Shown here: positions 9,522-64,000 of the stretch, piece after piece | Numbering within the stretch: position 1 is the first letter of the stretch | How the letters are laid out: each line of letters starts with the position of its first letter | NCBI GenBank assembly: GCA_030649135.1 | Contig: JAUSGI010000008.1 | Location: 81,935-145,934 of the forward strand | Source of the DNA: a bacterium | GTDB lineage: Bacteria > Patescibacteriota > Minisyncoccia > Phycocordibacterales > Zambryskibacteraceae | Reading direction: 5' to 3' | Length of the DNA stretch: 64,000 nucleotides | Made by a program: the position numbers and the translations under genes | Notes under the pieces: model-generated | Database searches by the model: none | Told to the model about the DNA's origin: nothing | The model's input: the letters and a program-made list of their open reading frames with translations, nothing else

Positions 9522-10508
9522 TTACCGCTTTATAATTTTGTTGACTGCTCCGATAATACTTTTGGTGCCCATACCGTAGTGTTCTATGAGTTCATCTGGA
9601 GTTCCGGATTGGCCAAATTGGTCGTCTACGCCCAGAAACTCCATGGGCACCGGGAAATTTTTAGCTAAACATTCCGCCACGGCAGAACCCATACCACCAC
9701 GAATTTGATGTTCTTCCAGAGTTATTATCCTGCCAACTTTCTTGGCAAATTTTACAATACTTTCTTCGTCTAAAGGTTTAATGGTCGCAAGGTTCACTAC
9801 TTCTACTTCAATCCCCTGCTCCTCAAGCTCTTTAGCTGCTAGGAGTGCTCTGTGAAGAAGCGCCCCGGTAGCAATGATACCCGCTTGGGGCTTTTCGCTA
9901 GTCCAGTAAGTTTCTGCTTTACCAATCTTGAAGGGTGTTTGTTCTGTTGTTATAATAGGCGTCTTTTCACGGGCGAGGCGTATATAAACCGGCGTGCCTG
10001 TATCCACGCTTGCCAAAGTGGCTTTCTTGGCTTCTATGGCGTCGCAAGGAGAAAGTACCATCATGCGAGGAATAACGCGAGTGATAGCGATGTCTTCTAT
10101 GGCCTGATGCGTCCCGCCATCAGGACCGACAGAGATGCCGGCATGGGAGCCGATAATCTTAACTGGCCTATCGTTATAACAAATATTGGTGCGAATCTGC
10201 TCCCAATTCCTACCGGGAGAAAACATGGCGTAAGAGCTGATGAAAGGAATCTTGCCCATCGCCGCTAAACCGCTGGCTACTCCGGCAAGGTTTTGTTCGG
10301 CCACTCCAACTTGAATAAATCGGTTCGGAAATTTCTCGGCAAACAGATTCATCTTGGTAGACTCTGTCAAATCAGCGCAGAGCCCCACTACCTGCATGTT
10401 TTTCTCCCCTGCCGCCAAAAGTCCTTCGCCGAATCCTTGCCGAATCGGTATTTGTTCTACATCCTTATCAAATATCTTCGTATTCAGTTTTAAGTCAGGG
10501 TTTAGCAT
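9522..10508 (-). CDS. Transketolase, C-terminal (pyrimidine-binding) subunit
   Basis: Transketolase Pyr and C-terminal domains, with 'GSHAGISVGPDGGTHQ'. Confidence 0.85.
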   Translation of the reverse strand: MLNPDLKLNTKIFDKDVEQIPIRQGFGEGLLAAGEKNMQVVGLCADLTESTKMNLFAEKFPNRFIQVGVAEQNLAGVASGLAAMGKIPFISSYAMFSPGRNWEQIRTNICYNDRPVKIIGSHAGISVGPDGGTHQAIEDIAITRVIPRMMVLSPCDAIEAKKATLASVDTGTPVYIRLAREKTPIITTEQTPFKIGKAETYWTSEKPQAGIIATGALLHRALLAAKELEEQGIEVEVVNLATIKPLDEESIVKFAKKVGRIITLEEHQIRGGMGSAVAECLAKNFPVPMEFLGVDDQFGQSGTPDELIEHYGMGTKSIIGAVNKIIKR

Positions 10509-12023: not shown

Positions 12024-12559
12024 AATTCTTGAAAGCCCGACCCGACCACCAACCTATCTGCGCCGGCATTTTGGAGCGCCTGATAGTTGGTAATATTGAT
12101 TCCCCCATCAATGCTCATCGGCACTTGGGGAAACTTTTCTTTAACCTTTTTTATTCTATCAAAAATCTGTTCATCTAGCGGATGTCCTTGCGCGCCAATC
12201 TGGGCGATAGACATGAGATGGATAAAATCTATTTGAGGTACAAGCGGGGAAACTTCTTCTAACGGTGTTTCGAGTTCTACTGCCAAGCCAATCTCCACTT
12301 TGCCTTTAAACTTACTAATCTTTTCTTCGAGAGTATGAACGATAATTCTCTTGGCTCCCCTCTTCACCCAGCGCTCTACAATTTCTCCTGGTTGCTTTAC
12401 CATCAAGTGCACTTCAAAGTTGATGCCCAGAGGCTCTATCCAGATATCTGCCTCGAGCGTATCAAGGTGCACCAATCTTACCTCCTTTGGTATCTGGGAG
12501 AGCTTAAAATCTAAATCGGCAATGTTGGTAGGTAAAATAGCCGGGATAATTTCACTCAT
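11999..12559 (-). CDS. rpe: Ribulose-phosphate 3-epimerase
   Basis: 'HLMV', 'IHLMSI', 'SIDGGIN' and 'GADRLVVGSGF' align with the Rpe catalytic motifs. Confidence 0.7.
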   Translation of the reverse strand: MSEIIPAILPTNIADLDFKLSQIPKEVRLVHLDTLEADIWIEPLGINFEVHLMVKQPGEIVERWVKRGAKRIIVHTLEEKISKFKGKVEIGLAVELETPLEEVSPLVPQIDFIHLMSIAQIGAQGHPLDEQIFDRIKKVKEKFPQVPMSIDGGINITNYQALQNAGADRLVVGSGFQELWKSLTKN

Positions 12560-14477: not shown

Positions 14478-14503
14478 CAAACCCCGCCAGAGGCGGGGTT
14501 TGT
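14478..14503 (-). terminator. Rho-independent terminator built on a CCCCGCC-AGA-GGCGGGG palindrome (REP-like family member)
   Basis: 'aaaccccgccagaggcggggttt' is a perfect 7-bp GC stem flanked by A and T runs, so it can terminate in either orientation. It lies 23 nt downstream of the RRM gene stop. Confidence 0.65.
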
Positions 14504-17029: not shown

Positions 17030-18694
<1,665 letters not shown>

Positions 18695-19075
18695 TTATTT
18701 AATGACTGCTAAAATATTGTCTTCTTTCAAGAGATAAAGTTCCTCGCCGCCCTGTTCAACTTCGTCATATCCGTATTTGGAAAAGATGACAACGTCGCCA
18801 ACCTTAAGACGCACCGGTACCAATTTTCCCTCGATCCATTTCCCCTCCCCGACGGCTAAAACTTTACCTTGAGCCGATTTCTCTTTGGTCACGGATTCAG
18901 GGAGAATAAAATTGAGTGGAGACTTTTTACCTTGAGCTTGCCCCGCCACGGCGGGGCGCAGTCGAATCTCTTCTTCGGTAAAAGGACGAACCAGAACTCT
19001 GTCCCCAAAAGGCTTGATCTGGGCTTTTGCTTGCCCGGAGTTTTTGCGAGGGGTTTTTGTATTTTTCTTTTTCAT
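18695..19075 (-). CDS. groS: Co-chaperonin GroES with a Lys-rich N-terminal extension and an internal in-frame insertion
   Basis: 'IKPFGDRVLVRP' and 'GKVLAVGEG' are GroES motifs. The protein is 126 aa against about 95 aa typical. The extra 'EIRLRPAVAGQAQ' segment is encoded by the palindrome at 18940-18957. Confidence 0.85.
   Translation of the reverse strand: MKKKNTKTPRKNSGQAKAQIKPFGDRVLVRPFTEEEIRLRPAVAGQAQGKKSPLNFILPESVTKEKSAQGKVLAVGEGKWIEGKLVPVRLKVGDVVIFSKYGYDEVEQGGEELYLLKEDNILAVIK
18940..18957. repeat. REP-like palindrome CCCCGCC-ACG-GCGGGG, in-frame inside groES
   Basis: 'gccccgccacggcggggc' with flank 'ggcggggcaagctc' on the coding strand. It is identical in core to the copy at 28582-28597 and shares the flank with 61547-61560. 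Confidence 0.7.
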
Positions 19076-21198: not shown

Positions 21199-22971
21199 AT
21201 GCTTAATACATTTACGAGTGGTCTGCGCCACAAAAATATTCATAGGAGATCTAACGCACCCATGGTGGCGAAAAAGCCTCATGACATCATTCCGACATTG
21301 GGAGAGAGCATTAGAATCATCCCGCTCGGCGGGGTGGAAGAAATCGGCAGAAACATGACCGTCATAGAATACGGCGAAGATATCATAGTCATTGATGCTG
21401 GCATTAAGTTTACCGACTATGAGACGCCAGGGGTCGACTATATCCTGCCTAATATTAAATATCTCGAGGAACGCAAGGACCACATCCGCGCCTTGGTGAT
21501 TACTCACGGGCACCTCGACCACATCGGCTCCATCCCCTACGTCATTGACCGCCTTGGTAATCCGCCAATCTATACCCGTGAGTTTGGGGCCCTATTGATT
21601 CAGAAGAGGCAGGTGGAATTTCCCCACCTGGCGCCGCTTGATATCAGGATTGTCGAAGCCAACGACACTTCCATCCCGTTAACCGCCAATCTCAAGGTGC
21701 GCTTTTTCGGTGTTACCCACTCTATTCCGGATTCCACCGGTGTCATCATCGAGACCCCTTACGGCGACATCGTCAATACCGGAGACGTGCGTATAGAGAA
21801 CGAAAATGGCGTACCGGACCAGAGGGAAATAGAGCATTACAAAATGTTCAAGGACCGCAATATTCTGCTCTTTTGTATGGACTCGACAAACATCGAACAA
21901 CCGGGCTTCTCGCTATCGGAAACTTTTATTTTGAAAAACATAGACGGGATTGTGGCCGCCGCGCCCGGCCGGATTATCTTAGCCACCTTTGCTACCCAAG
22001 TGGAGAGGGTGATTGAGTTTATCAAGATGGCCCAGCACTATTCGAGAAAAGTGATTATTGAAGGCCGCAGTATGAAAACAAATGTCGAGATTATCAAACA
22101 TCTTAATCTCGTCGAAACCAGCCATATCATTCCGATTGAAGATACTACGAAGTATCCTCCCAACAAGATTATGATTATCACCACCGGCGCCCAAGGCGAA
22201 GAATTCTCCGCTCTGATGCGCATGTCCAACAAGACCCACAAATTTGTCCGTCTGGAACGTTCCGACACCATTGTGCTCTCTTCTTCCGCTATTCCCGGTA
22301 ATGAACGCGCTATTTCCAAGCTGAAAGATAATCTCTATCGTCATGATTCAAAAATTATCACTTATCTTGATTCGGACGTGCACACCTCGGGCCACGGTAG
22401 GCGCGGTGAATTGGAGTGGTTACACAAGCAAATGCCGTACAAATATTTTATGCCGGTGCATGGCAACCACTACAGACTAAAGATGCACGCCGAACTAGCC
22501 GCGAGACTCGGCTGTCCGCGCGAAAACATTATCGTGCCGGACAACGGCAGTATTCTCGAAATTCAAGACAAAGGCGCTAAGTTTGTTAAATTACGGGAGA
22601 AAGCGCCCTCGGAAGATATGGTGGTTGAGGGTCTTTCTATCGGAGATATTTCTGACGTAGTAATCCGAGACAGAAAAATGTTGGCGGAAGACGGTATTTT
22701 CGTAGTTATAGCCCTGGTGAACACGCGCACGGGCTATCTCAAAAAATCACCGGACATTATCGCCAGAGGTTTCGTCTACCTGCGGGAATCGCAGGAATTG
22801 CTTTCCGAAGCGCGGGGCATCATTAAGCGCTCCATCGAAGGCACCACCGTGGGTATGAATCCGATTAATTTTGATTACGCCAAGAACGCAGTCACCGAGG
22901 ATGTCTCCCGGTTTCTCTTCCAACGCACAGCCAAAAAACCGATAGTTATTCCGGTCATCTTAGGAGTATGA
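21199..22971 (+). CDS. rnj: Ribonuclease J
   Basis: Metallo-beta-lactamase 'HGHLDHIG' plus beta-CASP and RNase J C-terminal domains. The start could be the second ATG ('MVAKKPHD'). Confidence 0.85.
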   Translation: MLNTFTSGLRHKNIHRRSNAPMVAKKPHDIIPTLGESIRIIPLGGVEEIGRNMTVIEYGEDIIVIDAGIKFTDYETPGVDYILPNIKYLEERKDHIRALVITHGHLDHIGSIPYVIDRLGNPPIYTREFGALLIQKRQVEFPHLAPLDIRIVEANDTSIPLTANLKVRFFGVTHSIPDSTGVIIETPYGDIVNTGDVRIENENGVPDQREIEHYKMFKDRNILLFCMDSTNIEQPGFSLSETFILKNIDGIVAAAPGRIILATFATQVERVIEFIKMAQHYSRKVIIEGRSMKTNVEIIKHLNLVETSHIIPIEDTTKYPPNKIMIITTGAQGEEFSALMRMSNKTHKFVRLERSDTIVLSSSAIPGNERAISKLKDNLYRHDSKIITYLDSDVHTSGHGRRGELEWLHKQMPYKYFMPVHGNHYRLKMHAELAARLGCPRENIIVPDNGSILEIQDKGAKFVKLREKAPSEDMVVEGLSIGDISDVVIRDRKMLAEDGIFVVIALVNTRTGYLKKSPDIIARGFVYLRESQELLSEARGIIKRSIEGTTVGMNPINFDYAKNAVTEDVSRFLFQRTAKKPIVIPVILGV

Positions 22972-24119: not shown

Positions 24120-24130
24120 AAAAATTTATA

Positions 24131-24162
24131 AAAAAATAGGACCCGCCAAGTAGGCCGGGTCC
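24131..24162 (-). terminator. Hairpin terminator for island gene a (GGACCCGCC...GGCCGGGTCC followed by a T-run on the minus strand)
   Basis: An A-run at 24131-24137 on the plus strand precedes a GC hairpin at 24139-24162. Confidence 0.5.
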
Positions 24163-24199
24163 TGTGGCAGTTTGGGGAGGTCTGCCAACCTTTACTTCT

Positions 24200-24388
24200 C
24201 TACTCGGCGGGTCGGAACTTACGACGAGGCCGACTTTGTTTCAGGTCTTCGTCACACCCTACCATCTCCCTTTCTATCACATCCTGGTCAGAGAGGTCTT
24301 CATCCTCCGACCCATGCATCAGTCCAAAACCCTTAAGGAGTCGAATTTCCTTACTCGAAGGATCTACGCCTGTCTTTCTCTTTTTCAT
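24200..24388 (-). CDS. Island gene a: small acidic hypothetical protein
   Basis: 62 aa. SD 'AAGGAG' lies 6 nt upstream of the ATG. The gene sits in the ~60% GC segment and is followed by a hairpin terminator. Confidence 0.5.
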   Translation of the reverse strand: MKKRKTGVDPSSKEIRLLKGFGLMHGSEDEDLSDQDVIEREMVGCDEDLKQSRPRRKFRPAE

Positions 24389-24514
24389 CTGGGCTCCTTA
24401 TGTCCTGCTTCCCTTTCGATTATGTTCAGGGTGAAGGCTTACAGACACTAACGCTCTGTCCTTTAGAGTGGCATGAACAAGCTAGTTTGTCAATTAGTTG
24501 TAATCGTTGTATAG

Positions 24515-24544
24515 AAAAAGGACCCTCCATGCTGGCAGGGTCCC
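24515..24544 (-). terminator. Hairpin terminator for island gene b (AAAAA-GGACCCTCC-N-AGGGTCC)
   Basis: 'aaaaaggaccctccatgctggcagggtccc'. It is near-identical in design to the hairpin at 25517-25545. Confidence 0.5.
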
Positions 24545-24621
24545 GTTGTGAGTTGAGGCCGTGTCCTCAACTCGTTTGTACTTAGGCGTGACATCGGCAC
24601 GCATTGGGATCTGAAACTCTG

Positions 24622-24852
24622 CTAGTCCCCGATCGCCCCACTTCGTGAGAACGGGCGAGAGACGCCCGGTAACACCCGGGACGGATCCATCCCGAGGCGC
24701 TGCCTCAGCCACGCGACCCACTCCGGATAGCTCGGAGTGAGAAGCACGACGACCTCGTCGTAGGTCGGCGTGTCCCCAAGCACGTCGCACACGGCTGGCA
24801 AAAGAAGCCGGCGTGTTTCCTTGTCGAGTCTCCGACCCGATGCGTCATTCAT
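24622..24852 (-). CDS. Island gene b: hypothetical protein
   Basis: 76 aa with a strong SD 'GAGGAGAAGG' upstream of the ATG. The gene is GC-rich. Confidence 0.5.
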   Translation of the reverse strand: MNDASGRRLDKETRRLLLPAVCDVLGDTPTYDEVVVLLTPSYPEWVAWLRQRLGMDPSRVLPGVSRPFSRSGAIGD

Positions 24853-25085
24853 TGCCTTCTCCTCATCGCGCTTTGCGCGACTTTAAACATTTAGCAGTGC
24901 GTCCTCTTGCGAGGCCTATACGCACTGCGGTTCAGCCCCCTCTGTGCGGGGAATCGATACTTGATTATATTTTCTTTCTCAAAGAACTAACTGTTTCGCC
25001 CTTTCGGACTCATCAGCGCAGATACACATCTGCGAACAGCGGGAAGTTTTGCTGAGATACTTCCCGAAACTCTGGGTTTGCACGG

Positions 25086-25406
25086 TTACCCCTTCTTCTT
25101 CTTGCTACCGGCACCCATGCCAGCGGCCATCCGGCGCTGCTCCTCCGCGCGCTCGCTCCGGTGGGCGAGGTAGCGCTTGTGCGCCGCCTCACGGATGGAG
25201 GCCGAGAACTCGGTCTCCTTCCGACGCCGCTCGGACAGCATGCGCCTGGCGCACGCCAGGCGTGGCCGCCAGAAATCGGAGGTCGCGAGTTGCTTGTCGA
25301 GCTCGACCGCGGCGATATCCGCCGCAACGGTCGAAGTGGCGACCTGCACCGGCAGGGTGCAGGCCAGAAACTCTATCACTCGGCCAATGGAGCGTGTCGC
25401 ATTCAT
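25086..25406 (-). CDS. Island gene c: hypothetical Ala/Arg-rich protein with a KKKKG tail
   Basis: 106 aa with SD 'AAGGAGAA'. Upstream on the minus strand lies TTGACAA-N17-TATCAT. Two hairpins follow downstream. Confidence 0.5.
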   Translation of the reverse strand: MNATRSIGRVIEFLACTLPVQVATSTVAADIAAVELDKQLATSDFWRPRLACARRMLSERRRKETEFSASIREAAHKRYLAHRSERAEEQRRMAAGMGAGSKKKKG

Positions 25407-25516
25407 GGCGTTCTCCTTATCGTGCCTCCCCTTCGTCTATACTTAGGGTGAGGACTTTCTAGCTACAATGATAGCATAATACAACTTATTTGTCAATGGC
25501 TTTAAATAGTTAAAAG

Positions 25517-25545
25517 TAAAAGGGCCCTCCGTGTAGGCAGGGCCC
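25517..25545 (-). terminator. Hairpin terminator for island gene d (AAAA-GGGCCCTCC-N-AGGGCCC)
   Basis: 'aaaagggccctccgtgtaggcagggccc'. Confidence 0.5.
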
Positions 25546-25564
25546 AGTCGAAACGCCACCTAGT

Positions 25565-25960
25565 CTAGTAACTGGTGGGGAAAGCAGATGTCAGCGCCTC
25601 CCCCTGGTCGCTTGCCGGGTTGGGGTTGAACCAAACCCGAGAGATGGACCCATGGCCGATGTGATACACGCCGGCCAGAGTACATGAGCCATCCCGCTGT
25701 GCGGGGTGATGTACGAACACCCCGAAACGCAGACGGGCCAGCGCGGCCGCGATGCAGAACGGCACATCCGCGACGGCATAGACGAAGCCATCGCCATGCT
25801 CGCGGACGTAGTCCGCGAGCCCATCCGTGGTGACGAACACCGTGGGGTCCTTCACGATCTCCACGTAAACACCGTGGAGAGTTCGCATCGCCCGCCGCTG
25901 TGTGGGCGACATGTCGTAACGCGATAACCAATAAATCCTCCCGATGTAAATTCTGTTCAT
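25565..25960 (-). CDS. Island gene d: hypothetical protein
   Basis: 131 aa starting at the ATG at 25960 ('MNRIYIGRIYW...'), with SD 'GGGGGAA'. Upstream on the minus strand lies TTGACAA-N17-TATTAG. No family recognised. Confidence 0.5.
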   Translation of the reverse strand: MNRIYIGRIYWLSRYDMSPTQRRAMRTLHGVYVEIVKDPTVFVTTDGLADYVREHGDGFVYAVADVPFCIAAALARLRFGVFVHHPAQRDGSCTLAGVYHIGHGSISRVWFNPNPASDQGEALTSAFPTSY

Positions 25961-26068
25961 GGTTCCCCCACTCTGCCTCCCATTTCTCGGAGGGCTATAG
26001 GTAATACAACCTTGGTCTGCTCTCACTAATAGCACAGCACAATTCTCTTGTCAACAGCGTCCATAAAT

Positions 26069-28426: not shown

Positions 28427-28663
28427 TGCGGGATCGTCTAATGGTAGCCTGCCCGCCATCGCTGGGAGTTGAGCTGGGAGATCGTCTAATGGTAGGACAC
28501 CTCCCTCTGAAGGAGGTTATCTTGGTTCGAGTCCAAGTCTCCCAGCTCAGGCCCTAGCAGGCGGGGACATCGCCATCCCTGCCCCGCCGTGGCGGGGTGA
28601 AAAGGCGAGCATCTTGCTTGTCCCGGCCAGCCGGGCGGGAGTCGAGTCCAAGTCCCGCAGCCA
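28427..28663 (+). pseudogene. Fragmented tRNA-Gln(UUG)-like gene interrupted by GC-rich palindromic insertions and by an intact tRNA-Gln(CUG)
   Basis: Segments match the intact tRNA-Gln(TTG) at 39279-39352 in collinear order. 28427-28447 matches nt 1-21 (21/21). 'GACATCGCC' at 28567-28575 matches nt 22-30 (9/9). 'GGCGAGCATCTTG' at 28604-28616 matches nt 39-51 (12/13). 28647-28663 matches 'TCCAAGTCCCGCAGCCA' (17/17). They are separated by inserts that include ccccgccgtggcgggg. Confidence 0.55.
28475..28545 (+). tRNA. tRNA-Gln (anticodon CTG)
   Basis: Hand fold. Acceptor is TGGGAGA/TCTCCCA with a U1-A72 pair, as in bacterial tRNA-Gln. D-stem is GTC/GAC. Anticodon stem CCTCC/GGAGG encloses loop CTCTGAA. 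The T-arm is CTTGG-TTCGAGT-CCAAG. No CCA is encoded. Confidence 0.75.
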
Positions 28664-28711
28664 GGTTTGCTATAACTAAGCGCATGAACAAATGTGCTAC
28701 AATAAGAACAT

Positions 28712-39278: not shown

Positions 39279-39352
39279 TGGCTGCGGGACTTGGATTCGA
39301 ACCAAGATACTCGCCTTCAAAGGGCGATGTCCTACCATTAGACGATCCCGCA
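39279..39352 (-). tRNA. tRNA-Gln (anticodon TTG)
   Basis: Hand fold. Acceptor TGCGGGA/TCCCGCA, anticodon loop CTTTGAA, T-arm CTTGG-TTCGAAT-CCAAG, CCA encoded. Confidence 0.8.
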
Positions 39353-39703: not shown

Positions 39704-40747
39704 CTATTTGACAGTGTCGGCGAGAGCAAGCTCGAGAGCCAGTTCTGGGATACTGGTGCGGCCGGAGTCTTCGTAAGCAGTAATGAAGCGCAGGAGAACG
39801 TCGGCAGTTAGGTCAGTCCCAGCTTTGTCTCTAAGGGTTTGCAAAAACTTAAAGTCATCTTCACTAACTTCTCCGGCAATATATTCGTCCATACCTGCTT
39901 TGAGCCGCAGGAGAAAGAGGAAACGCAGGCGCTCGAGAATAAGTTTGGCGAAAAGTTTCATCTCGGCATTGGCTCCGGCGGCGCTCTGGATTGCTTTCAT
40001 CCCCTTTTCTAAATCTTTTTCGACAATCGATTCGAGAATCTGGCGCACCAGCTCCGCTTTCGGCGCACCAGTTACTTGTTCTATCTCCTCTCTGGTTATC
40101 TTCTTACTTTTGGTAGAAGAAAGCACTTTTTCCAAAATCCCATGCGCATCGCGGAAAGAGCCGTCACCCAGTAGCGCCACCAGTTCCGCCGCGGCCGGCT
40201 CAAGCGCTGCGCCCTCCTTTTTCGCCACCGAGAGTGCGAAATCTTTGAGCGTCGCTTGATTGGGTTGTTTGAACGAAAAAGTTTGGCAACGAGAAATCAC
40301 CGTCTCCGGCACTTTCTCAAGTTCGGTGGTAGCTAAGATGAAGACCACATGCGCCGGTGGTTCCTCAAGAGTCTTTAGAAACGCGTTCCAGGCATCTTTG
40401 GTAAGCATGTGCACTTCGTCGATAATGTAGACCTTATATTTGGACTCGAATGGCAAAGTATTGACCGATTCCCGAATCTCCCGCACGTCGTCGATACCAC
40501 GGTTGGAAGCGGCGTCCATCTCGACGAGGTCATTGGCCGAGGTGCCAATTTCTCGCGACAAAATTCTCGCCATGGAAGTCTTGCCGGTACCTCGTGAGCC
40601 AGAGAAAAGGTAGGCATGGGAAATATTGCCGAGTTTGATTGCCCCTTCCAAAACTTTGACAATATGACCCTGCCCGATAATATCTCCAAAGGTTTGGGGA
40701 CGATATTTGCGGTAAAGCACTCCCCCGCTCTTCTCTCCTTTTTTCAT
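39704..40747 (-). CDS. dnaX: DNA polymerase III subunit gamma/tau (short)
   Basis: 'YRPQTFGDIIGQ', Walker A 'GSRGTGKTS', 'DEVHML' and sensor motifs. Confidence 0.85.
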   Translation of the reverse strand: MKKGEKSGGVLYRKYRPQTFGDIIGQGHIVKVLEGAIKLGNISHAYLFSGSRGTGKTSMARILSREIGTSANDLVEMDAASNRGIDDVREIRESVNTLPFESKYKVYIIDEVHMLTKDAWNAFLKTLEEPPAHVVFILATTELEKVPETVISRCQTFSFKQPNQATLKDFALSVAKKEGAALEPAAAELVALLGDGSFRDAHGILEKVLSSTKSKKITREEIEQVTGAPKAELVRQILESIVEKDLEKGMKAIQSAAGANAEMKLFAKLILERLRFLFLLRLKAGMDEYIAGEVSEDDFKFLQTLRDKAGTDLTADVLLRFITAYEDSGRTSIPELALELALADTVK

Positions 40748-41727
40748 GAACGTAGTATATCAGATACTATTTTGTTAACCTCGTTTGCGTTGTTCGTTTC
40801 CATAAGTTTGGCGCGTAAATCCCCTGCTTTATCAAAGCCCGTAACGTAGGCCTTAAAATGTTTCTTCATCACAGAAAAGTTTTTGTACCCACCGAGCAGT
40901 TCTTCAAATAACTTTGTGTGCTCAACCAGCACCCGCAGTTTTTCTTCGGTTGCCGGAACATATCCTTCCACAAATAGCCACGGGTTTCCGAAAATGGCCC
41001 GGCCGAGCATGACACCATCACAGCCCGTCTCTTCGACTCTCATCCTTGCTTCTTTCAAATCTTTAACATCCCCATTACCCAAAATTAAAGTGTCTTTACC
41101 ACTTGCATCACGAATCTCGACTGCCAGTTTGACAAACTCCCAACGAGCGGGCACCTTCGACATTTCTTTCCTGGTACGAGCATGAATGGTAACCATCGCC
41201 ACTCCCTCTTTAAGCATTTCTGACAGCCAGCTCTCCAGGTCAGGACGACTGTACCCTATACGAGTTTTGACCGAGACAGGTAGTGTGCTAGCCCCTTCTT
41301 TAGCCGCCCTTACAAGCTCCCGAGCCAGCACCACGTTCTTCATAAGTGATGCGCCGGCACCTTGTTTCTCGATACTTTTGTCCGGACAACCCATATTTAT
41401 ATCGACACCATCAAAGCCAAGCTCCTTTGCGAGCTCGGCGGCTTTTTTCATATGTTCCGGAGAGGAGGTAAAGAATTGCGCCACGATTGGCCGCTCCGCT
41501 TCGCTATATTCCAGATTCTTCAAAAGTTTCTTTTTCCCCTCTTCCGGCGCAAGTGCCAAGCCGTCGGCAGAAGTAAATTCTGTCCACATCACGGCGGGTT
41601 TACCCCGCCCACCTAGGCGGGGCGAGCCGTACTTAGCGATTATTCTGCGAAAAGCGGCATCCGTAACATCCGCCATGGGAGCGAGGACGAAAACAGGTTT
41701 TTCTATTTTCTGCCAGAAATTATCCAT
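40744..41727 (-). CDS. dus: tRNA-dihydrouridine synthase, carrying an in-frame 10-aa palindromic insertion
   Basis: 'FVLAPMADVTDAAFRRII', 'MWTEF' and the TIM-barrel Dus family. The inserted 'SPRLGGRGKP' lies between the conserved 'AKYG' and 'AVMWTEF' and is encoded by the palindrome at 41603-41622. Confidence 0.8.
   Translation of the reverse strand: MDNFWQKIEKPVFVLAPMADVTDAAFRRIIAKYGSPRLGGRGKPAVMWTEFTSADGLALAPEEGKKKLLKNLEYSEAERPIVAQFFTSSPEHMKKAAELAKELGFDGVDINMGCPDKSIEKQGAGASLMKNVVLARELVRAAKEGASTLPVSVKTRIGYSRPDLESWLSEMLKEGVAMVTIHARTRKEMSKVPARWEFVKLAVEIRDASGKDTLILGNGDVKDLKEARMRVEETGCDGVMLGRAIFGNPWLFVEGYVPATEEKLRVLVEHTKLFEELLGGYKNFSVMKKHFKAYVTGFDKAGDLRAKLMETNNANEVNKIVSDILRS
41603..41622. repeat. 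REP-like palindrome CCCCGCC-CACCTA-GGCGGGG, in-frame inside dus
   Basis: 'ccccgcccacctaggcgggg', with an adjacent ggcggg-ttta-ccccgcc half overlapping at 41594-41609. Confidence 0.7.
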
Positions 41728-49254: not shown

Positions 49255-51462
49255 GTGATGCGTTTACTTATAGTAGAGTCGCCGTCGAAAGCCAAGACTA
49301 TCGAGAAATATCTTGGTAAAGATTTTCGCGTGGTCGCGTCCGTCGGGCATATTCGCGACCTTCCCAAATCAAATAAGGCGGCTATTGATGTACCGGGTGG
49401 CTTCATACCGCACTACGAAGTGGTGAAGGGAAAAGAAAGAGTGATTTCGGAAATTAAGTCATTGTCCAAAAAAGCCGACGAAGTCTTGCTCGCGACCGAC
49501 CCAGACCGCGAAGGTGAGGCTATTGCTTGGCATGTCGAGCAGGCGGTTGGATTGAAGTCTCCGAAACGTATTGTCTTCTATGAGATAACCAAAGAAGCCG
49601 TAGAAGAAGCGCTCGAACATCCCCGAGAAATTGACACCAACCTTCGGGAAGCACAGGAAGCAAGGAGGGTTTTGGACCGTTTGGTCGGCTATGACCTTTC
49701 CGGACTAATCTGGAAAAAGGTGCGTTACGGTCTGTCCGCCGGCAGAGTGCAATCCCCCGCTCTGCGCATCGTAATGGAGCGCGAGCGCGAAATACGCGCC
49801 TTTCTACCGGTCACTTTCTGGACTATTACTGCCAATCTCGAAGATAAATCTAAAAATAATCTGGTTTTCGTCTGTTCCCAAGAACCAAATAAAAAAGAGG
49901 ATGTAGAAAATATCATTAATTCTGCCAAGGTCTCCCCTTGGCAAGTTACGGACATCAAGGAAACCAAAGTGGCGCGCGCTCCGCGCGCGCCCTTCATCAC
50001 CTCGACCTTGCAACAGACAGCAAGTTCTCGCCTTGGCATGGCACCCTCTCGCTCTATGTACTTTGCCCAGAGACTTTACGAAGCCGGACACATTACTTAT
50101 ATGCGTACCGACTCCACCAATCTTGGTGGTGCGGCGCGCAAAGAAATAGAGGAGGTGGTGAAGAAAAAATACGGAGCGAATTATTTTGAATCGCACGTCT
50201 TTGCGAAAAAATCTAAAAACGCACAAGAAGCTCACGAAGCCATTCGGCCAACGCACATGAATGTAGAAACGGCTGGGGCGACAGATGGGGAGAAAAAACT
50301 TTACCAACTAATCTGGCAGAGAACCATCTCAAGCCAAATGAAACCGGCGGAAGTCATGCGGACCAAAGTCGTGGCCAACACAGAGGTTAAACCTCTGGGA
50401 TTGGAGTCCGGAGGTTTAACCTCTGGGGAAATGCCGGACTTCTGGCTCAATGGCTCGCGCATTATCTTTGACGGCTGGCTTAAGGCCGACCCACGCTCGG
50501 CTAGTGAGGATATTATCTTGCCGAAAATCTTGACAGGCGACCCGCTCAAGCTCTTGAATATAAGCTCGGAAGAAAAGCTAACCGAACCGCCCGCTCGATA
50601 TTCCGAAGCAGGATTAATTAAAGAACTTGAAAAACGCGGCATCGGCCGACCGTCGACCTATGCTTCCATTATCAAGACACTTGACGACCGTGGCTATGTG
50701 GAAAAAAGGGCTAAAGCCCTTTTCCCCACCGACACAGGTGAAGTGGTCAGCTCATTTCTCGAAGAGCATTTCCCTACCTATATCAGTGATTCCTTCACTG
50801 CGGAAATGGAGGACGAGCTGGACGACATCGCCAACGGTACGCGCACATATAAGAAAACTCTGGCTGATTTTTATACGCCATTTTCAAAAGAAGTAAAAGA
50901 GCGAGATAAAGTCGCCAAAATCACTAACCTAGGCAAAGCGCCAGCGGACTTGAAGTGCCCCGTCTGCGGAGCTAACATGATTATCAAGCTCGGCAAGAGC
51001 GGTAAGTTCTTGTCCTGCGAGAAGTACCCGGAATGCCAAGGGGCACGCACCATGGAAGGCAAGGAGCTTGAAGGGCCTAAAGATACCGGAGAAATATGCC
51101 CTAAGTGCGGCAAGGGTAATCTGGTCACTCGGGAAGGCAAGTTCGGCATGTTCACGGCTTGTTCGCGTTTCCCCAAGTGCAAGTTTGTCAAAAAAGATGA
51201 GGAGCAAGAGAAAGCAAACTCCACCGGTGTAAAATGTCCCGTATGTAAAACTGGTTTTCTGTCGGAACGGCGCGGCCGCTTCGGAATATTCTACAGCTGC
51301 TCAAACTATCCCGACTGTAAGTATGCCATCAATGCTAAGCCTACCGGTGAGACCTGCAAACTCTGTGGTAGTTTGATGATGGAAGGTACGAAAACTATTC
51401 CGGAGAGATGTTCAGATAAAAAATGTCCCAATCACAACCCACACAAAATCAATCAGACCTAG
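49255..51462 (+). CDS. topA: DNA topoisomerase I with C-terminal zinc ribbons
   Basis: Toprim 'LIVESPSKAKTI', the active-site region 'GHITYMRTDS' and four C4 zinc ribbons. Confidence 0.9.
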   Translation: MMRLLIVESPSKAKTIEKYLGKDFRVVASVGHIRDLPKSNKAAIDVPGGFIPHYEVVKGKERVISEIKSLSKKADEVLLATDPDREGEAIAWHVEQAVGLKSPKRIVFYEITKEAVEEALEHPREIDTNLREAQEARRVLDRLVGYDLSGLIWKKVRYGLSAGRVQSPALRIVMEREREIRAFLPVTFWTITANLEDKSKNNLVFVCSQEPNKKEDVENIINSAKVSPWQVTDIKETKVARAPRAPFITSTLQQTASSRLGMAPSRSMYFAQRLYEAGHITYMRTDSTNLGGAARKEIEEVVKKKYGANYFESHVFAKKSKNAQEAHEAIRPTHMNVETAGATDGEKKLYQLIWQRTISSQMKPAEVMRTKVVANTEVKPLGLESGGLTSGEMPDFWLNGSRIIFDGWLKADPRSASEDIILPKILTGDPLKLLNISSEEKLTEPPARYSEAGLIKELEKRGIGRPSTYASIIKTLDDRGYVEKRAKALFPTDTGEVVSSFLEEHFPTYISDSFTAEMEDELDDIANGTRTYKKTLADFYTPFSKEVKERDKVAKITNLGKAPADLKCPVCGANMIIKLGKSGKFLSCEKYPECQGARTMEGKELEGPKDTGEICPKCGKGNLVTREGKFGMFTACSRFPKCKFVKKDEEQEKANSTGVKCPVCKTGFLSERRGRFGIFYSCSNYPDCKYAINAKPTGETCKLCGSLMMEGTKTIPERCSDKKCPNHNPHKINQT

Positions 51463-52967: not shown

Positions 52968-53926
52968 ATACTGAAATTGGCGACAGAATAGAGAGACTCG
53001 TCGTCTTCGGATTTTACTGGCTCGTCCTCTGCGAGAATTTTGTCCTCCTCTGTCAGAGCTGGAACGTCTGCTATAGACATGTTTACTTCATGTGAGTTTT
53101 TAAATTCTTTATCCACAATAATTCTTTCAAGTAGAGCTCGTAGGTCATCTTTATTGAAAAAGTCTATCGTCACTCGCCCGCCTTCTTCCTTCTTTTCTAT
53201 TCTCACTCGAGTACCCAATTTCTCTTTAAACAAGCCCTCGATATCTATAAGTTCTTGGTCGATCAACTTGCGGGCACGCTCGACCGCAATGTGACGTGCG
53301 ATACCTTCCGCCTCCCTGACGTTGAGTTTTTTGAAAATAATTTCTTTGAAAAGCGTTTCTTGCTCCTGTGGCCTGTCGGTAAGCATCATGAGTGGCCGGG
53401 TATGGCCCTCGCTAATCTTATTTTCCGATAGAGCGTTAATAATATATTCCGGCAAAGAAAGAATGCGCAGAGAGTTTGAGACAAACTCACGACTCTTCCC
53501 TACTTTCTTGCCGATCTCGTGATGCTTGAACTTAAATTCTTTCGACAGGCGGTCGAAAGCGCGGGCACGGTCAACGGGACTAAGGTCCTCGCGCTGAATG
53601 TTTTCGATGATAGCGAGCTCAAGTTTCATTAGGTCAGTTTCCTCACCATCGCGAATGAGTACTGGTACTTGCGCGAGGCCAGCTAGGCGAGCGGCGCGGA
53701 GGCGCCGCTCGCCGGCCACCAATTCATATTCCACACCAATCCCCCCCTCCTCCTTTTCCACTTCTTTACGCGTCACCACAAGAGCCTGAAGCACGCCATA
53801 TTGGCGGATGGAATCCGCCAAACTCTTGAGCTGAACTTCATCGAAGTCACGGCGGGGCTGGTATGGGTTCGGCTTAATTTTATCCACCTCTATCCAGAAA
53901 ATAGAGTCGTTATAGAATCGGGACAT
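52964..53926 (-). CDS. parB: ParB/Spo0J-family partition protein
   Basis: ParB box 'GVLQALVV...ELVAGERRLRAARLAG', an HTH and an acidic C-terminus. Confidence 0.8.
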   Translation of the reverse strand: MSRFYNDSIFWIEVDKIKPNPYQPRRDFDEVQLKSLADSIRQYGVLQALVVTRKEVEKEEGGIGVEYELVAGERRLRAARLAGLAQVPVLIRDGEETDLMKLELAIIENIQREDLSPVDRARAFDRLSKEFKFKHHEIGKKVGKSREFVSNSLRILSLPEYIINALSENKISEGHTRPLMMLTDRPQEQETLFKEIIFKKLNVREAEGIARHIAVERARKLIDQELIDIEGLFKEKLGTRVRIEKKEEGGRVTIDFFNKDDLRALLERIIVDKEFKNSHEVNMSIADVPALTEEDKILAEDEPVKSEDDESLYSVANFSI

Positions 53927-53969
53927 GCAAATATTATATCAAATGTTTTTATGCTATTCTATGGTAGAC

Positions 53970-54052
53970 GCTGGAGTGATGGAATGGCAGACATGCAGCA
54001 CTCAAAATGCTGTGGGCGCAAGCCCGTGTGGGTTCAAGTCCCACCTCCAGCA
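53970..54052 (+). tRNA. tRNA-Leu (anticodon CAA)
   Basis: Hand fold. Acceptor GCTGGAG/CTCCAGC, 3-bp D-stem, anticodon stem CAGCA/TGCTG with loop CTCAAAA, a 15-nt variable arm (GGGC-GCAA-GCCC), T-arm GTGGG-TTCAAGT-CCCAC. No CCA is encoded. Confidence 0.8.
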
Positions 54053-54053
54053 C

Positions 54054-54632
54054 ATGCTAAATCTTACCGATAAAACTTTGGTGGCATATGTTATTGGTAT
54101 CGCTCTTGGCGATGGAAATCTTTCTAATCCGAATGGACGTGCAGTTAGATTAAGAATAACCTGTGACTCTAAATATCCCTTTTTGATTTCTAAGATTGAA
54201 CAGTCATTAAAGAAATTGGCCCCTAAAAATAAAGTCTCTCGAATCAATAGAGGAGATAATGCCATAGATGTCAGCTGCTATTCAAATCAATGGGAGCAAT
54301 TACTCGGTTGGAAGGCCTACGGTGGCTCAAAAATAAGACAATCGGTTCGCATACCTAGTTGGATATTTAGAAATAAAAAACTTTGTCAGGCTTGTTTGTG
54401 CGGACTATGGGAGACCGATGGTTCGGTTTACAAAGACAGAAAATATATAACAGCAAATTTTGTGACTCAGATTCCAAGCCTCGCACAAGGTGTGGCGAAG
54501 ATGATTCTTAAAACCCGCTACAAGGCTTCTATACAAAAATTGGTCTTATCTGATAACAGAGAAAAATTTACTTTCAGAATTCATAGAAATGCTTCTCAGT
54601 TTATTAAAGAAATGTCTATAGAGAAAAGGTGA
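54054..54632 (+). mobile_element. Free-standing double-motif LAGLIDADG homing endonuclease gene
   Basis: Motif 1 'VIGIALGDGNLS' and motif 2 'LCGLWETDGSV'. The ATG sits 2 nt after the tRNA-Leu 3' end. The frame is open back through the tRNA to 53925. Confidence 0.7.
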
Positions 54633-61186: not shown

Positions 61187-61273
61187 TGGTGCGCCGGGCA
61201 GGATTCGAACCTGCGTAGACCAAAGGTCGAGGGATTTACAGTCCCTTGCGATTGACCGCTCCGCCACCGACGC
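61187..61273 (-). tRNA. tRNA-Tyr (anticodon GTA)
   Basis: Hand fold. Acceptor GCGTCGG/CCGGCGC with one G-U pair, anticodon loop CTGTAAA, long variable arm, T-arm CAGGTTCGAATCCTG, CCA encoded. Confidence 0.75.
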
Positions 61274-61281
61274 AATAACCA

Positions 61282-61521
61282 TCAATTTATCAGTTTTTTC
61301 AAACCATTGCCACCTTTGTAAGATTTGATCTTCTTTTCTCTCTCAAAAGCTTCTTGTTGTCCCTCGAACAATTCCAAATGGACTATTTCCCACGGACAGC
61401 CAAGTTTTGTAGATAAATTTTGACCTTTATTATGTTCCTTCAGCCTCCTTTTATAATTATTTGAGCACCCTATATAATATTTTCTATTCTTTTTGCTCTG
61501 AAGAATATATACATGCCACAT
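61282..61521 (-). CDS. GIY-YIG nuclease-superfamily small protein (YhbQ/UPF0213-like)
   Basis: 'WHVYILQS...KYYIGCSNN...RRLKEHN' matches the GIY-YIG core. Confidence 0.7.
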   Translation of the reverse strand: MWHVYILQSKKNRKYYIGCSNNYKRRLKEHNKGQNLSTKLGCPWEIVHLELFEGQQEAFEREKKIKSYKGGNGLKKLIN

Positions 61522-61538
61522 GTCCGTGCGATTGATTC

Positions 61539-61588
61539 CGCCCCGCCTCGGCGGGGCAAGCTCCGCCTTTACCCCGCTGTGGCGGGGA
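61539..61588. repeat. Two tandem REP-like palindromes (CCGCCCCGCC-TC-GGCGGGGC and ACCCCGC-TGT-GGCGGGGA) between the GIY-YIG gene and clpB
   Basis: The first copy carries the 'ggcggggcaagct' flank, identical to the groES-internal copy. On the minus strand the pair would act as a terminator for clpB. Confidence 0.65.
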
Positions 61589-61641
61589 CCGACACGATGG
61601 GGCTATTCTAATCGAAATCTGACGGACTTGCAAAAATACTT

Positions 61642-64000
61642 CTATTTCAGCGCAGGTTCTCTGCTTGATACAACTGTACTCACATGACCCGAGCGTTTGC
61701 TCCTCTTAATATCGAAAGTAAATTGGCCATCTTTCACATCAACCGAAACCGTACCACCGGAAAGCACTTTATTGGATATCATCATGGAAGCCACCGGGTT
61801 CAGAATTTTTTCCTGAATCAGACGCTTCAGGGGTCTTGCTCCGTACTGTGGATTATAACCTTCTGCGGCCAAGAGTTCCGACACCGACTCCATGACCGAA
61901 AGGTTGATTTCCTTTTCTGCGAGACGCTTCTTAATGATATCGATTTGGATATTAACAATTTCTTTGATTGCCTCCTTGGAGAGTATGTCGAAGATAATAA
62001 TATCGTCAAGACGGTTGAGAAATTCCGGTCGGAAATGCTCTTTGAGGGTCGAGAGCACTTTCTCTTTAACACCCTCGTAAGTTTCCTTCTCGCCACTGTT
62101 GAAGCCGATGGATTGCATCTTGTCTATGTATTGGGCACCAATGTTTGAGGTCATGATGATGACCGTGTTTTTGAAATTAATAACCCTACCCTTGGCATCG
62201 GTCAGACGACCATTATCGAGGATTTGCAATAAAATGTTAAACACCTCCGGATGCGCCTTCTCAATCTCATCGAAAAGGATGACCGAATATGGCCTGTGTC
62301 GCACAGACTCGGCAAAACTGGAACCTTCTTCGAAGCCGACGTATCCCGGTGGCGCGCCAATCAGTTTGGAGACGGAATGCTTTTCCATAAACTCCGACAT
62401 ATCTACGCGGATGAGTGCCCGTTCATCGTCAAACATAAATTCCGCCAAGGCCTTAGTCAGCTCGGTCTTACCCACCCCAGTCGGACCAAGAAAGATGAAA
62501 GAACCGATAGGACGATTGGGGTCGGAGATACCGGCGCGCGAACGCTTGACGGTGTCAGCAATCTTTTTGACTGCCTCGCCTTGACCGACAATACGCTTCT
62601 TGAGGAATTCTTCCATTCGGGAAAGTTTGGCCGCTTCTTCTTCAAGCATTCTGGAAACCGGGATACCGGTCCACCGACTGACTACCAGCGCGATATCGGG
62701 TGCGGTAATTTCTTCTTTCAGAATGCTCCTGGAACTTTGAAGTTTTTTCAGACGCTTGGCTTTGGCTTCTAATTCTTTCTCCAGACCCGGTATCTGGCCG
62801 TATCGAAGTTCCGCCGCGCGGGAAAGGTCGGCGCGTGCCTCCGCCGCTTCGGCCTCAAGTCGCAGAGTTCCCAGAGTTTTTTTAATCTCCTTGATTTCCC
62901 CTACCGTTTCTTTCTCATTTTTCCACTTCAACTCTATCTCCGAAGTCTTCTCGCGCAAATCGGCAATATCTTTGTCAATAACTTTCAGTCGTGCTTTCAC
63001 TTTAGGGTTCCCGGACTCTTTCTTAAGTGCTTCCTTCTCGATATCTAACTTCATAATCTTGGAGTGGGCATCCTGAAGCACCGGCGGCATATTCTCGAGA
63101 GAAATTTTGAGAAACGAAGATGCCTCGTCTATAAGGTCTACCGCTTTATCCGGCAAAAACCTGTCAGTGATATAACGCGAAGAGAGATTAACGGCTGCTT
63201 GGATAGAATCATCGGTAATACGCACCCCATGATAGAGTTCGTACCTTTCTTTCAATCCACGCAAGATGGTCACGGCATCATCGATAGAAGGTTCCTGAAC
63301 ATAAACGGGCTGGAAACGGCGGGTCAAAGCCGGGTCTTTCTCGATATGTTTCTGATATTCACGCAGAGTTGTGGCACCAATAGCCCGTAGTTCCCCTCGA
63401 GCGAGTGAAGGTTTGAGCATATTGGAGGCATCCATAGCCCCTTCCGCGGCACCGGCGCCGACGATGGTATGAATTTCATCTATAAACAGAACAATTTTGC
63501 CTTCCGATTTTTCGATTTCTTTAATGATATTTTTGAGCCGCTCTTCAAATTCGCCGCGGTACTTGGTGCCGGCAATCAAGAGTCCGATATCGAGAGACAC
63601 CAATTCCTTATCCCGCAGAGATTCCGGGACGTTGCCGCTTGCCATGCGTAGTGCCAGTCCTTCGGCAATGGCAGTCTTACCGACGCCCGCTTCACCGATG
63701 AGAATCGGATTATTTTTGGTACGGCGGGAAAGAATTTGGATAATGCGCGAGATTTCATCATCGCGACCAATAACCGGGTCGAGTTTATTTGCCTTGGCAA
63801 GCATGGTTAGGGAACGGGTGTATTTGGAAAGAGATTTATATTTCTTCGATTCTTTCGGCTCGGTGGGGCTGGTCTTTTTCAGTTCCTCAAGCACCTTTAG
63901 AATTGTTTGTCTGTCGATTTTAAATTTTAAAAGAAGTTCACGCGCTTCTCCCGGAACATCGAGTACCGCGATAAATAGATGCTCGGTGGAAACAAATTCA
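61642..64000 (-). CDS. clpB: Chaperone ClpB (5' end beyond the window edge)
   Basis: D1 Walker A '[10 protein letters not shown]', Walker B '[12 protein letters not shown]', a long middle coiled coil and D2 '[14 protein letters not shown]'. The frame stays open upstream of the annotated GTG to the window end, with N-domain-like '...[10 protein letters not shown]...'. Confidence 0.9.

Follow-up and report, generated by a model that had tools for sequence, protein, structure and literature searches.

The groES gene of a Patescibacterium, located in a 64-kb stretch of its genome (contig JAUSGI010000008.1; below, the window), carries an in-frame 21-nt insertion formed by a GC-rich palindrome with a short spacer, and the same hairpin module is found in frame in a second gene of the window, dus, and in relics of tRNA genes. 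We consider it probable that the groES insert is a tolerated insertion of a selfish hairpin, similar to repetitive extragenic palindromic (REP) elements or to Rickettsia palindromic elements (RPEs), in a permissive loop of the protein. The initial annotation had proposed an in-frame palindromic insertion for this gene; indeed, ctgcgccccgccgtggcggggcaagct, occupying positions 18936–18962 on the minus strand, lies within the 126-aa open reading frame (ORF), and the extra residues match the palindrome at the codon level.

The Palindrome and the Exact Indel in groES

The host gene (groES, or Cpn10; 126 aa, 18695..19075, minus strand) was identified by its ORF, by the PF00166 domain, found in all matches, and by alignment to the structures 4v4o and 1wnr. 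The identical NCBI record is named "co-chaperone GroES," and hundreds of GroES homologs are present in Patescibacteria/Parcubacteria. The gene is directly upstream, in the same operon, of groEL (552 aa, 17030..18688, minus strand; PF00118 in syntenic loci), which starts 6 nt 3' of it.

The palindrome GCCCCGCC-GT-GGCGGGGC (18940..18957, retrieved by motif count with no strand assigned) is perfect, with 8-bp arms and a 2-nt centre. Codon alignment with the hairpin-less groES of relatives L008 and L009, as well as tblastn gap coordinates, delimit the insert as CTG CGC CCC GCC GTG GCG GGG (18941..18961, minus strand), that is, the palindrome plus a 3–4-nt spacer, CTG(C), encoding LRPAVAG, residues 39–45. 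Both relatives have GAC GCC CTT CGA/CAA GCT CAG GGT (D A L R Q A Q G, the slash marking the junction), versus GAG ATT CGA/CTG CGC CCC GCC GTG GCG GGG/CAA GCT CAA GGT in the window. The indel thus coincides with the palindrome, and its length is 7 aa (21 nt) instead of the 10–13 aa initially suggested. No target-site duplication was found in this alignment at the junction CGA/CTG...GGG/CAA. With its flanks, the insert makes up a full "long form" copy, TTCGAC-TGCG-CCCCGCC-GT-GGCGGGG-CAAGCTCA (18933..18966, minus strand), delimited by alignment and by the covariance model R1 described below.

Palindromes of this type are overrepresented in the window: GCCCCGCC-NN-GGCGGGGC occurs three times against 0.03 expected, CCCGCC-NN-GGCGGG five times against 0.08, and a still looser form eight times against 0.37. 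The groES hairpin folds as RNA into a 7-bp stem with a 4-nt loop (about –16 kcal/mol), and compared to random coding segments of the window the fold energy of this groES segment is extreme (P about 0.0007). After the stem comes CAAGCUCAAGG, with no U-tract, which does not fit an intrinsic terminator. The flank had also been taken as a mark of the repeat, and it does belong to the consensus of the repeat family, but CAAGCT is present in hairpin-less groES as well, where it encodes Gln-Ala.

An assembly artefact or a chance palindrome can be regarded as refuted. Apart from the general risk inherent in metagenome-assembled genomes nothing speaks for it, while the insert is found at the same site in seven independent assemblies from ENA, JGI and Logan besides that of the window itself, and motif enrichment and the covariance-model match argue against it too.

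Position of the Insert in the GroES Protein

The product aligns to the solved structures 4v4o, 1wnr and 1aon, with the tripeptide FIL occupying the position of IVL. Relative to Thermus GroES (4v4o, 1wnr), the stretch from EEE to GIVLP is longer by 14 residues, and this gap is where the insert lies. An AlphaFold model built from 111 homologs assigns to the GroES beta-barrel a predicted local distance difference test score (pLDDT) of 81–87, and only two segments have low confidence (pLDDT <50), the N-terminal extension (residues 1–16) and residues 39–63. The latter, the sole internal one, opens exactly at the insert L39–G45 and extends through FILPES. A previous model from 39 near-identical sequences had pLDDT 40 and was uninformative; it was replaced by the one from the 111-sequence alignment. 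According to the model, the insert lies at the start (in the N-terminal arm) of the GroES mobile loop, in a part predicted to be disordered, ten residues before the hydrophobic FIL tripeptide, which should be the predicted GroEL contact. The insertion had been placed near the GroEL-binding mobile loop from the outset, and both the low-confidence segment opened by residues 39–45 and the gap before GIVLP of Thermus agree with that.

The loop segment, measured from P-F-T/S-E to F/I-I-L-P, comprises 21 residues with the insert and 14 without it. Among 115 relatives its length is 14 aa (ALRQAQG type) in 68, 11–12 aa in 29, 21 aa in five, which are the hairpin carriers, and 22 aa in three. The last three have a different, 24-nt insert at the same point, a short TTCGACAGGCTCAGGG unit between TTCGAC and AAGTTC.

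A length of 126 aa, against approximately 95 aa typical of GroES, had been noted initially. This length has three sources, an N-terminal extension of approximately 18 aa, a long mobile loop common to the family, and the seven residues of the hairpin. The segment PRKNSGQAKA of the extension (19022..19051, minus strand) is absent from L010 and many other homologs. The extension follows the pattern TPRxxSGQAKA, and in relative L001 the same place is occupied by CTCGAC-T-AAGCTC-GGGGCAAGC, so that it may be an older, degraded copy of the short-form repeat considered below, the resemblance being weak in the window itself.

A Family of Hairpin Repeats in CPR Genomes

Scanning of genomes, one per species, with the pattern TTCGA-N3-8-CCCNGCC-N2-6-GGCGGGGCAAGC returned 25 stretches, mostly from low-GC genomes of the Candidate Phyla Radiation (CPR): Berkelbacteria, Yanofskybacteria, Falkowbacteria, Magasanikbacteria, Dojkabacteria, and Saccharibacteria, with further low-GC records labelled Bacteroidales and Gammaproteobacteria. 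The few high-GC matches, situated in coding DNA, look like chance occurrences. Most stretches share the consensus (GCT)TTCGAC-TTCA-CCCCGCC-NN-GGCGGGG-CAAGCTCAGCC, the spacer before the stem being TTCA, TGCG, TCCG or TCG, and alignment makes the groES segment a member of the family TTCGAC-spacer-CCCCGCC-NN-GGCGGGG-CAAGCTCAG. A broader pattern yielded eight more loci in JGI metagenomes, and the exact groES-type pattern had no match there. We also scanned a viral collection with the bare palindrome, but the matches (at least 120) came from unrelated GC-rich DNA, and the flanked pattern was used instead.

Nearly all of approximately 25 CPR copies sampled are outside long ORFs; one from JGI (L162) forms an in-frame part of an ORF of 346 aa that is similar in sequence to a family-2 glycosyltransferase. 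For R1 we used 12 copies, taking none from the window or from any groES, and its best match in the window is groES (18933–18966, minus strand; 43.7 bits, E about 2e-10), which is identical to the consensus in 32 of 34 positions. Next come 61528–61566 on the plus strand (37.5 bits) and 28577–28605 on the minus strand (22.5 bits). Among relatives, L012 has an R1 match at the serS 3' end (54 bits), and L001, L005, and L004 have one in groES. In total, the window holds five to seven copies in 64 kb. No Rfam family reached the gathering threshold except tRNAs in the window and 15 copy-bearing loci, with nothing significant in 61270–61650, and no published description of the repeat was found in the literature searched, whose coverage was incomplete.

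The family also has a hairpin-less short form, CCCTTCGACAAGCTCAGGG (ALRQAQG), which is the groES sequence at this position in most relatives. It is found again in L009, where it is intergenic (ATCCTTCGACAAGCTCAGGAT), and in L013, where it forms an in-frame insert of dus (RSTSSGQA). Hairpins consisting of a stem and TCGAC-N2-4-GCTC are found in frame in topA (HGERKSNH) and dus (VLSEVEGH) of L013. Judging by these sequences, in the window groES a GC hairpin module appears to lie within a short-form unit of greater age. The family flanks are the reverse complement of the D arm of class II tRNAs, an arm to which the loop segment of GroES also bears a resemblance. In the outer stem flanking TTCGAC...AAGCTC three of four pairs change on both sides, and 68% of cells pair; the register of this stem is ambiguous, and its covariation is only suggestive.

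The long-form copies in Dojkabacteria loci correspond to 5' parts of tRNA-Ser-like genes (GGAGAGGTGGCTGAG[hairpin]TCGAAAGC) and adjoin small GIY-YIG-like ORFs. We also observed there (L146, positions 1200–2000; similarly L165, L163, and L141, all of Dojkabacteria type) tandem units of approximately 314 bp, each with a small GIY-YIG-like ORF; these units hold a 5' tRNA-Ser fragment with a GC hairpin in the D loop, and an intact tRNA adjoins them. A second repeat, CCCCRC(C)TTYGCCAAGGCTACGNGSGGGCAAGC, was observed in two relatives, between genes in L011 (about 12050–12110) and in L012 (9436–9465), where a RuvB/HolB-like AAA+ gene contains it in frame (ADPTLPRLRG).

Copies in dus and in tRNA Relics

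The second host gene in the window is dus, encoding tRNA-dihydrouridine synthase (40744..41727, minus strand; PF01207, NCBI name, and alignment to 1vhn). Codon alignment with L013 defines here a 24-nt in-frame insert TCG CCC CGC CTA GGT GGG CGG GGT, encoding SPRLGGRG (41602..41625, minus strand), with the palindrome CCCCGCC-N6-GGCGGGG at 41603–41622; the TTCGAC and AAGCTC flanks are absent. The protein has IAKYG-SPRLGGRG-KPAVMW in place of IAKYGKPDVMW or a close variant in most of the 85 relatives listed (of 120). Two of these 85 have different inserts at this point, and only in P0184 (L012), a distant relative with 72% protein identity, is this 24-nt insert found again, at the same codon, with a difference only in the hairpin centre and with divergent flanks. 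In the structure of Dus from T. maritima (1vhn) the insert corresponds to a gap between helix 1 and strand 2. No target-site duplication was found at the junction GGC/TCG...GGT/AAA. We also observed in dus of L012 (7759–8787) three in-frame hairpin-forming inserts, SSRRGG, SPRPNGRG, and RPSEASAKGE.

The initial annotation had reported the palindrome at intergenic sites of the window. Non-coding copies do exist, but they sit in tRNA-derived relics. One is a tRNA-Gln(UUG) pseudogene (28560..28664, plus strand), recognized by pairwise alignment with the intact tRNA-Gln at 39279–39352, which has hairpins in the anticodon loop (28581–28598) and the T arm (28622–28635), lacks the D arm, and is called as a tRNA by neither ARAGORN nor Rfam. 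The other is a 5' fragment of tRNA-Tyr (61525..61595, minus strand), corresponding to the first 27 nt or so of the neighboring tRNA-Tyr (61187–61273) by alignment, with a hairpin insert of approximately 23 nt in the D loop (61540–61557) and one of 20 nt at the acceptor/D junction (61572–61587; insert 61568–61587). Upstream of this fragment (61601–61640, minus strand) a sigma-70-like promoter, TTGCAA, 17 nt, TAGAAT, can be seen by eye, pointing toward the intact tRNA-Tyr; given this sequence, the hairpin-bearing relic may be transcribed. The copies in dus and in the tRNA relics show that the hairpin behaves as a separate module landing in loops.

The lengths of coding inserts (18, 21, 24, and 24 nt) are all multiples of three, and none contains a stop codon, whereas non-coding copies are not limited in this way (20 nt in the tRNA-Tyr fragment), which argues that the hairpin is translated and not removed from the RNA. 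Its omission from the protein, as a mini-intron or by translational bypassing, would agree with the presence of related hairpins at tRNA-like loop positions, where small introns occur in other organisms; but apart from the restricted lengths of the coding copies, the tRNA hosts are otherwise defective, one having no D arm and the other being truncated, and we consider this explanation extremely improbable.

Comparison of 40 ORFs of the window with syntenic loci yielded a list of inserts of at least 3 aa, of which 19 lineage-specific ones of at least 4 aa were tabulated. Eight of the 19 fold more stably than 97% of random coding segments, with approximately 0.6 expected, and some of the other 11 are short-form units or hairpins.

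Several candidates were rejected. An in-frame 36-nt insert relative to L013, TEVKPLGLESGG (50380–50415), was observed in a topA-like ORF (49255..51462, plus strand); it forms a 13-bp perfect inverted repeat, GAGGTTAAACCTC...GAGGTTTAACCTC, but is unique in the window and equally readable as a tandem duplication, and we do not count it as a third case. CCCGCTCGGCGGG at 21321, in the N-terminal coding region of RNase J, is treated here as a chance match, no indel compared to relatives having been found there. Finally, CCCGCC-AGA-GGCGGG at 14483–14497, located between two minus-strand genes, has a 12-bp stem ACAAACCCCGCC...GGCGGGGTTTGT followed by TTTGTT on the minus strand, and by its sequence looks like an ordinary intrinsic terminator.

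Carriers and History of the groES Insert

The same insert with a perfect stem is present in L004, with the loop AC instead of GT. In L001–L003 and L005–L007 the 3' arm has decayed, to GACGAGGC and GGCGAAGC, respectively. Extra residues in relatives without a palindrome had been named as an observation speaking against the insertion; the palindromes in question are recognizable (two relatives with 6 of 8 pairs), and we read the decay as age, not as absence. Since the palindromes of L001 and L005 have decayed, no strong constraint seems to keep the hairpin, and the encoded peptide varies as well (PAVAG, PATAG, PATTR, PATAK). Selection on the insert would be nearly neutral.

This variation bears on two explanations that assign a function to the insert. 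According to the first, the repeat was raw material, and the seven residues have been kept since a longer loop alters GroEL capping, giving, for example, a larger or differently gated chamber. The loop segment has been lengthened repeatedly at the same point among the 115 relatives, differences between near-identical strains are concentrated in groES, and three lineages retain the insert, also where the palindrome has decayed. Moreover, in phage T4 the cage is enlarged by the longer mobile loop of Gp31, an analogue of GroES. On the other hand, the peptide is not conserved, most relatives have no insert, and the same hairpin occurs in dus and in dead tRNA genes, where such a benefit is inapplicable, so that adaptive lengthening seems unlikely. 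The likeness to Gp31, a GroES-type lid with an unusually long mobile loop, is also limited in that the long loop of Gp31 is an adapted protein feature, whereas the loop considered here owes its extra residues to a repeat-derived insert.

The second explanation, a functional hairpin in the groESL mRNA or DNA, acting for example as a stability, pausing or temperature-sensing element, would account for a stable stem (about –16 kcal/mol) within a heat-shock operon and for a stem perfectly conserved in L004, whose groES differs from that of the window by 23%. It is hard to reconcile with the decay of the stem in L001 and L005 and its absence from most relatives, with the lack of a U-tract and of an Rfam family match, and with the presence of the module in unrelated places including pseudogenes; we regard it as quite improbable.

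Ranking by bit score had grouped hairpin-bearing GroES into a clade, which was rejected by the trees of GroEL, SBP, RNase J, and the groES core. In the first three, L001 and L005 (hairpin) are placed beside L009 (hairpin-less), and L004 (hairpin) beside L010 (nested short-form insert), with the window apart; the groES-core tree agrees. Over 16.4 kb, 74 sites distinguish L001 from L005, 12 of them in the 381-nt groES and only one in groEL. At positions 10087–10291 groES is a local hot spot of differences or a recombination patch.

Such a distribution might reflect a reverse or reticulate history, with the long form being ancestral and lost in most lineages by precise slippage across the hairpin base, or gained once and spread by short-patch homologous recombination; no site-specific insertion would then be needed, although this scheme and a selfish insertion do not exclude each other. 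It agrees with the patchy, non-monophyletic occurrence of the hairpin, with 1-nt C/C microhomology at the indel ends, with GAG in place of GCC just upstream and the TGCG spacer being common to all carriers, and with the cluster of groES differences between L001 and L005, which fits a recombination patch. However, the short form is found in 68 of 115 relatives and the hairpin in only five; the loop dinucleotide is GT in the window, as in the copy at 28581, and AC in other carriers; and the same dus insert in two proteins that are only 72% identical, with divergent flanks, makes recombination hard to invoke. We consider this history rather doubtful, and the change would be a gain of the hairpin rather than its loss.

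Comparison with Known Elements and a Possible Mechanism

By their defining features, the groES insert is not an RPE, a miniature inverted-repeat transposable element (MITE) or a terminator. RPEs are palindromic repeats of about 150 bp, forming ten Rickettsia-specific families, which occur between genes and in frame in conserved genes, where they are translated as extra surface peptide (PMC10969869). The hairpin considered here is likewise found in frame (groES, dus) and in non-coding positions (28581, 61540, 61572), and the "RPE-like" label given to it at first is justified as to behavior, a palindromic repeat translated in frame, but not as to family membership. It is set apart by its size, the hairpin insert being 21 nt and the whole copy 34–40 nt (21–40 nt overall) against a defining RPE length of about 100–150 bp, and by its Patescibacterium host. 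Besides, each RPE family encodes a conserved peptide, whereas the peptide of the hairpin varies and its groES copy sits within an older copy of the repeat. MITEs (ERIC, BOX, Correia-type), small non-autonomous repeats, can be read as protein (PMC10969869), as the hairpin repeat also can, but the latter is approximately ten times smaller and has neither terminal inverted repeats beyond itself nor a target-site duplication.

The repeat also resembles REPs and bacterial interspersed mosaic elements (BIMEs) in form: it is a short (20–40 nt), GC-rich, imperfect palindrome, multi-copy, mostly extragenic, without target-site duplication, and its copies are sometimes paired (61540 with 61572, 28581 with 28622). 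A conserved 5' GTAG-type tetranucleotide at the hairpin foot is a feature of REPs, and the hairpin repeat lacks it. It also differs in that its sequence is common to several phylum-level CPR lineages, classical REPs being lineage-specific, and in having copies inside coding genes and tRNA relics. GC clusters and "byp" elements of yeast mitochondria are mobile GC-rich hairpins of tens of nucleotides that reside inside coding genes of a lower-GC genome. Both are organellar, and byp elements disrupt the frame, the ribosome passing over them; the CPR hairpin, in contrast, keeps the frame, and translation is the simplest reading.

For a selfish insertion the following scheme can be proposed. A 21-nt hairpin module (TGCG spacer, 7–8-bp C/G stem, 2-nt centre) would have entered between TTCGAC and AAGCTC, the target being the older hairpin-less short form of the same repeat. 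This would be a DNA-level event without target-site duplication or terminal repeats beyond the hairpin itself, which makes it REP-like rather than MITE-like. The insertion could survive in an essential gene because its length is a multiple of three, because arms composed of C and G only cannot encode a stop codon, and because it falls in the N-terminal arm of the mobile loop, which is predicted to be disordered. The insert would be translated, extending the loop segment from 14 to 21 residues, and the product would contain the peptide IRLRPAVAGQAQGK. As to the enzyme, an HUH/Y1 (RAYT-type, that is, REP-associated tyrosine transposase) or another structure-specific nuclease acting on single-stranded hairpins would be our leading guess. 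One relative, L011, has a RAYT-like Y1 transposase gene (PF01797; 9165–9916) adjoining groES on its upstream side. Flanking this gene is a REP of its own, distinct from the hairpin repeat, TGGTCAAAGC-CGA-GCTTTGACCA, a 12-bp-stem palindrome ACTGGTCAAAGC-CGA-GCTTTGACCAGT, a third copy of which is in frame inside the transposase ORF (TGQSSALTSG). Hence REP/RAYT biology exists in this group.

A number of observations weigh against this interpretation. No transposase or RAYT was detected by Pfam among the 20 ORFs of the window scanned, and a tblastn search with the L011 RAYT near the sampled copies gave at best E about 1, so a cognate enzyme was found in neither place, and we infer mobility from the distribution only. 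The hairpin-bearing groES genes (window, L001/L005, L004) are not monophyletic, so that the hairpin must have been gained several times at one site, lost precisely several times, or passed on by allele exchange or recombination; the sequence differences clustered in groES of L001 and L005 suggest the last of these. The stems of the window and L004 are identical, though the genes are only 77% identical, which could be a sign of selection for the hairpin rather than neutrality. Copy number was counted in 64 kb of the genome only. Finally, the fold energy of the 51-nt groES segment is unexceptional compared to its own dinucleotide shuffles (z = –1.1); as shuffle z-scores are weak throughout (–1.1 and –1.5), we gave them no weight, and the significance of the groES hairpin rests instead on the motif counts, the comparison with coding DNA of the window, and the covariance model.

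A more general possibility, which we put forward tentatively, is that CPR bacteria harbor previously undescribed, ultra-small insertion modules whose sequence is common to several phylum-level lineages and which a structure-specific nuclease (HUH/Y1 or GIY-YIG) could mobilize. Two module types would then exist, a GC hairpin of 20–25 nt and a "D-arm-like" stem with the loop TCGAC-N2-4-GCTC, both inserting without target duplication and with a preference for hairpin loops: D, anticodon, and T loops of tRNAs, and their own loops. If this is true, such modules would contribute in a major way to in-frame differences in the length of conserved CPR proteins, among them the repeated remodeling of the GroES mobile loop.

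Other Features of the Window

A GC-rich segment of approximately 1.95 kb (24120–26068; up to 59% versus 46% background) with no convincing long ORF is located between an MFS transporter gene and the genes for a 144-aa membrane protein and CTP synthase. The spacing is approximately 96 bp in L001 and L005, and by comparison the segment looks like an inserted element. Inside it, a candidate type III hammerhead ribozyme was observed at 24988–25042 on the minus strand, scoring 37.5 bits against a gathering threshold of 48.5 (E = 5.6e-6 to 7e-7), with intact CUGAUGAG and CGAAAC cores, three helices, and a GUU cleavage triplet. A free-standing ORF similar to LAGLIDADG_3 homing endonucleases (53925–54632, plus strand) has its start beside or overlapping tRNA-Leu (53970–54053).

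Significance

Colonization of genes by in-frame palindromic repeats is best known from Rickettsia, and here the same outcome is observed in a quite different lineage with reduced genomes, the units being much smaller. In the present case the loop of an essential co-chaperonin that binds GroEL has been hit, and the modules provide a natural experiment on the amount of additional mobile loop that GroES tolerates or can turn to use. In the small sample studied, at least eight of 19 lineage-specific protein insertions are hairpin-forming or repeat-derived. If this proportion is general, such repeats would be a significant overlooked source of protein length evolution in CPR bacteria, and would confound gene calling and alignment.

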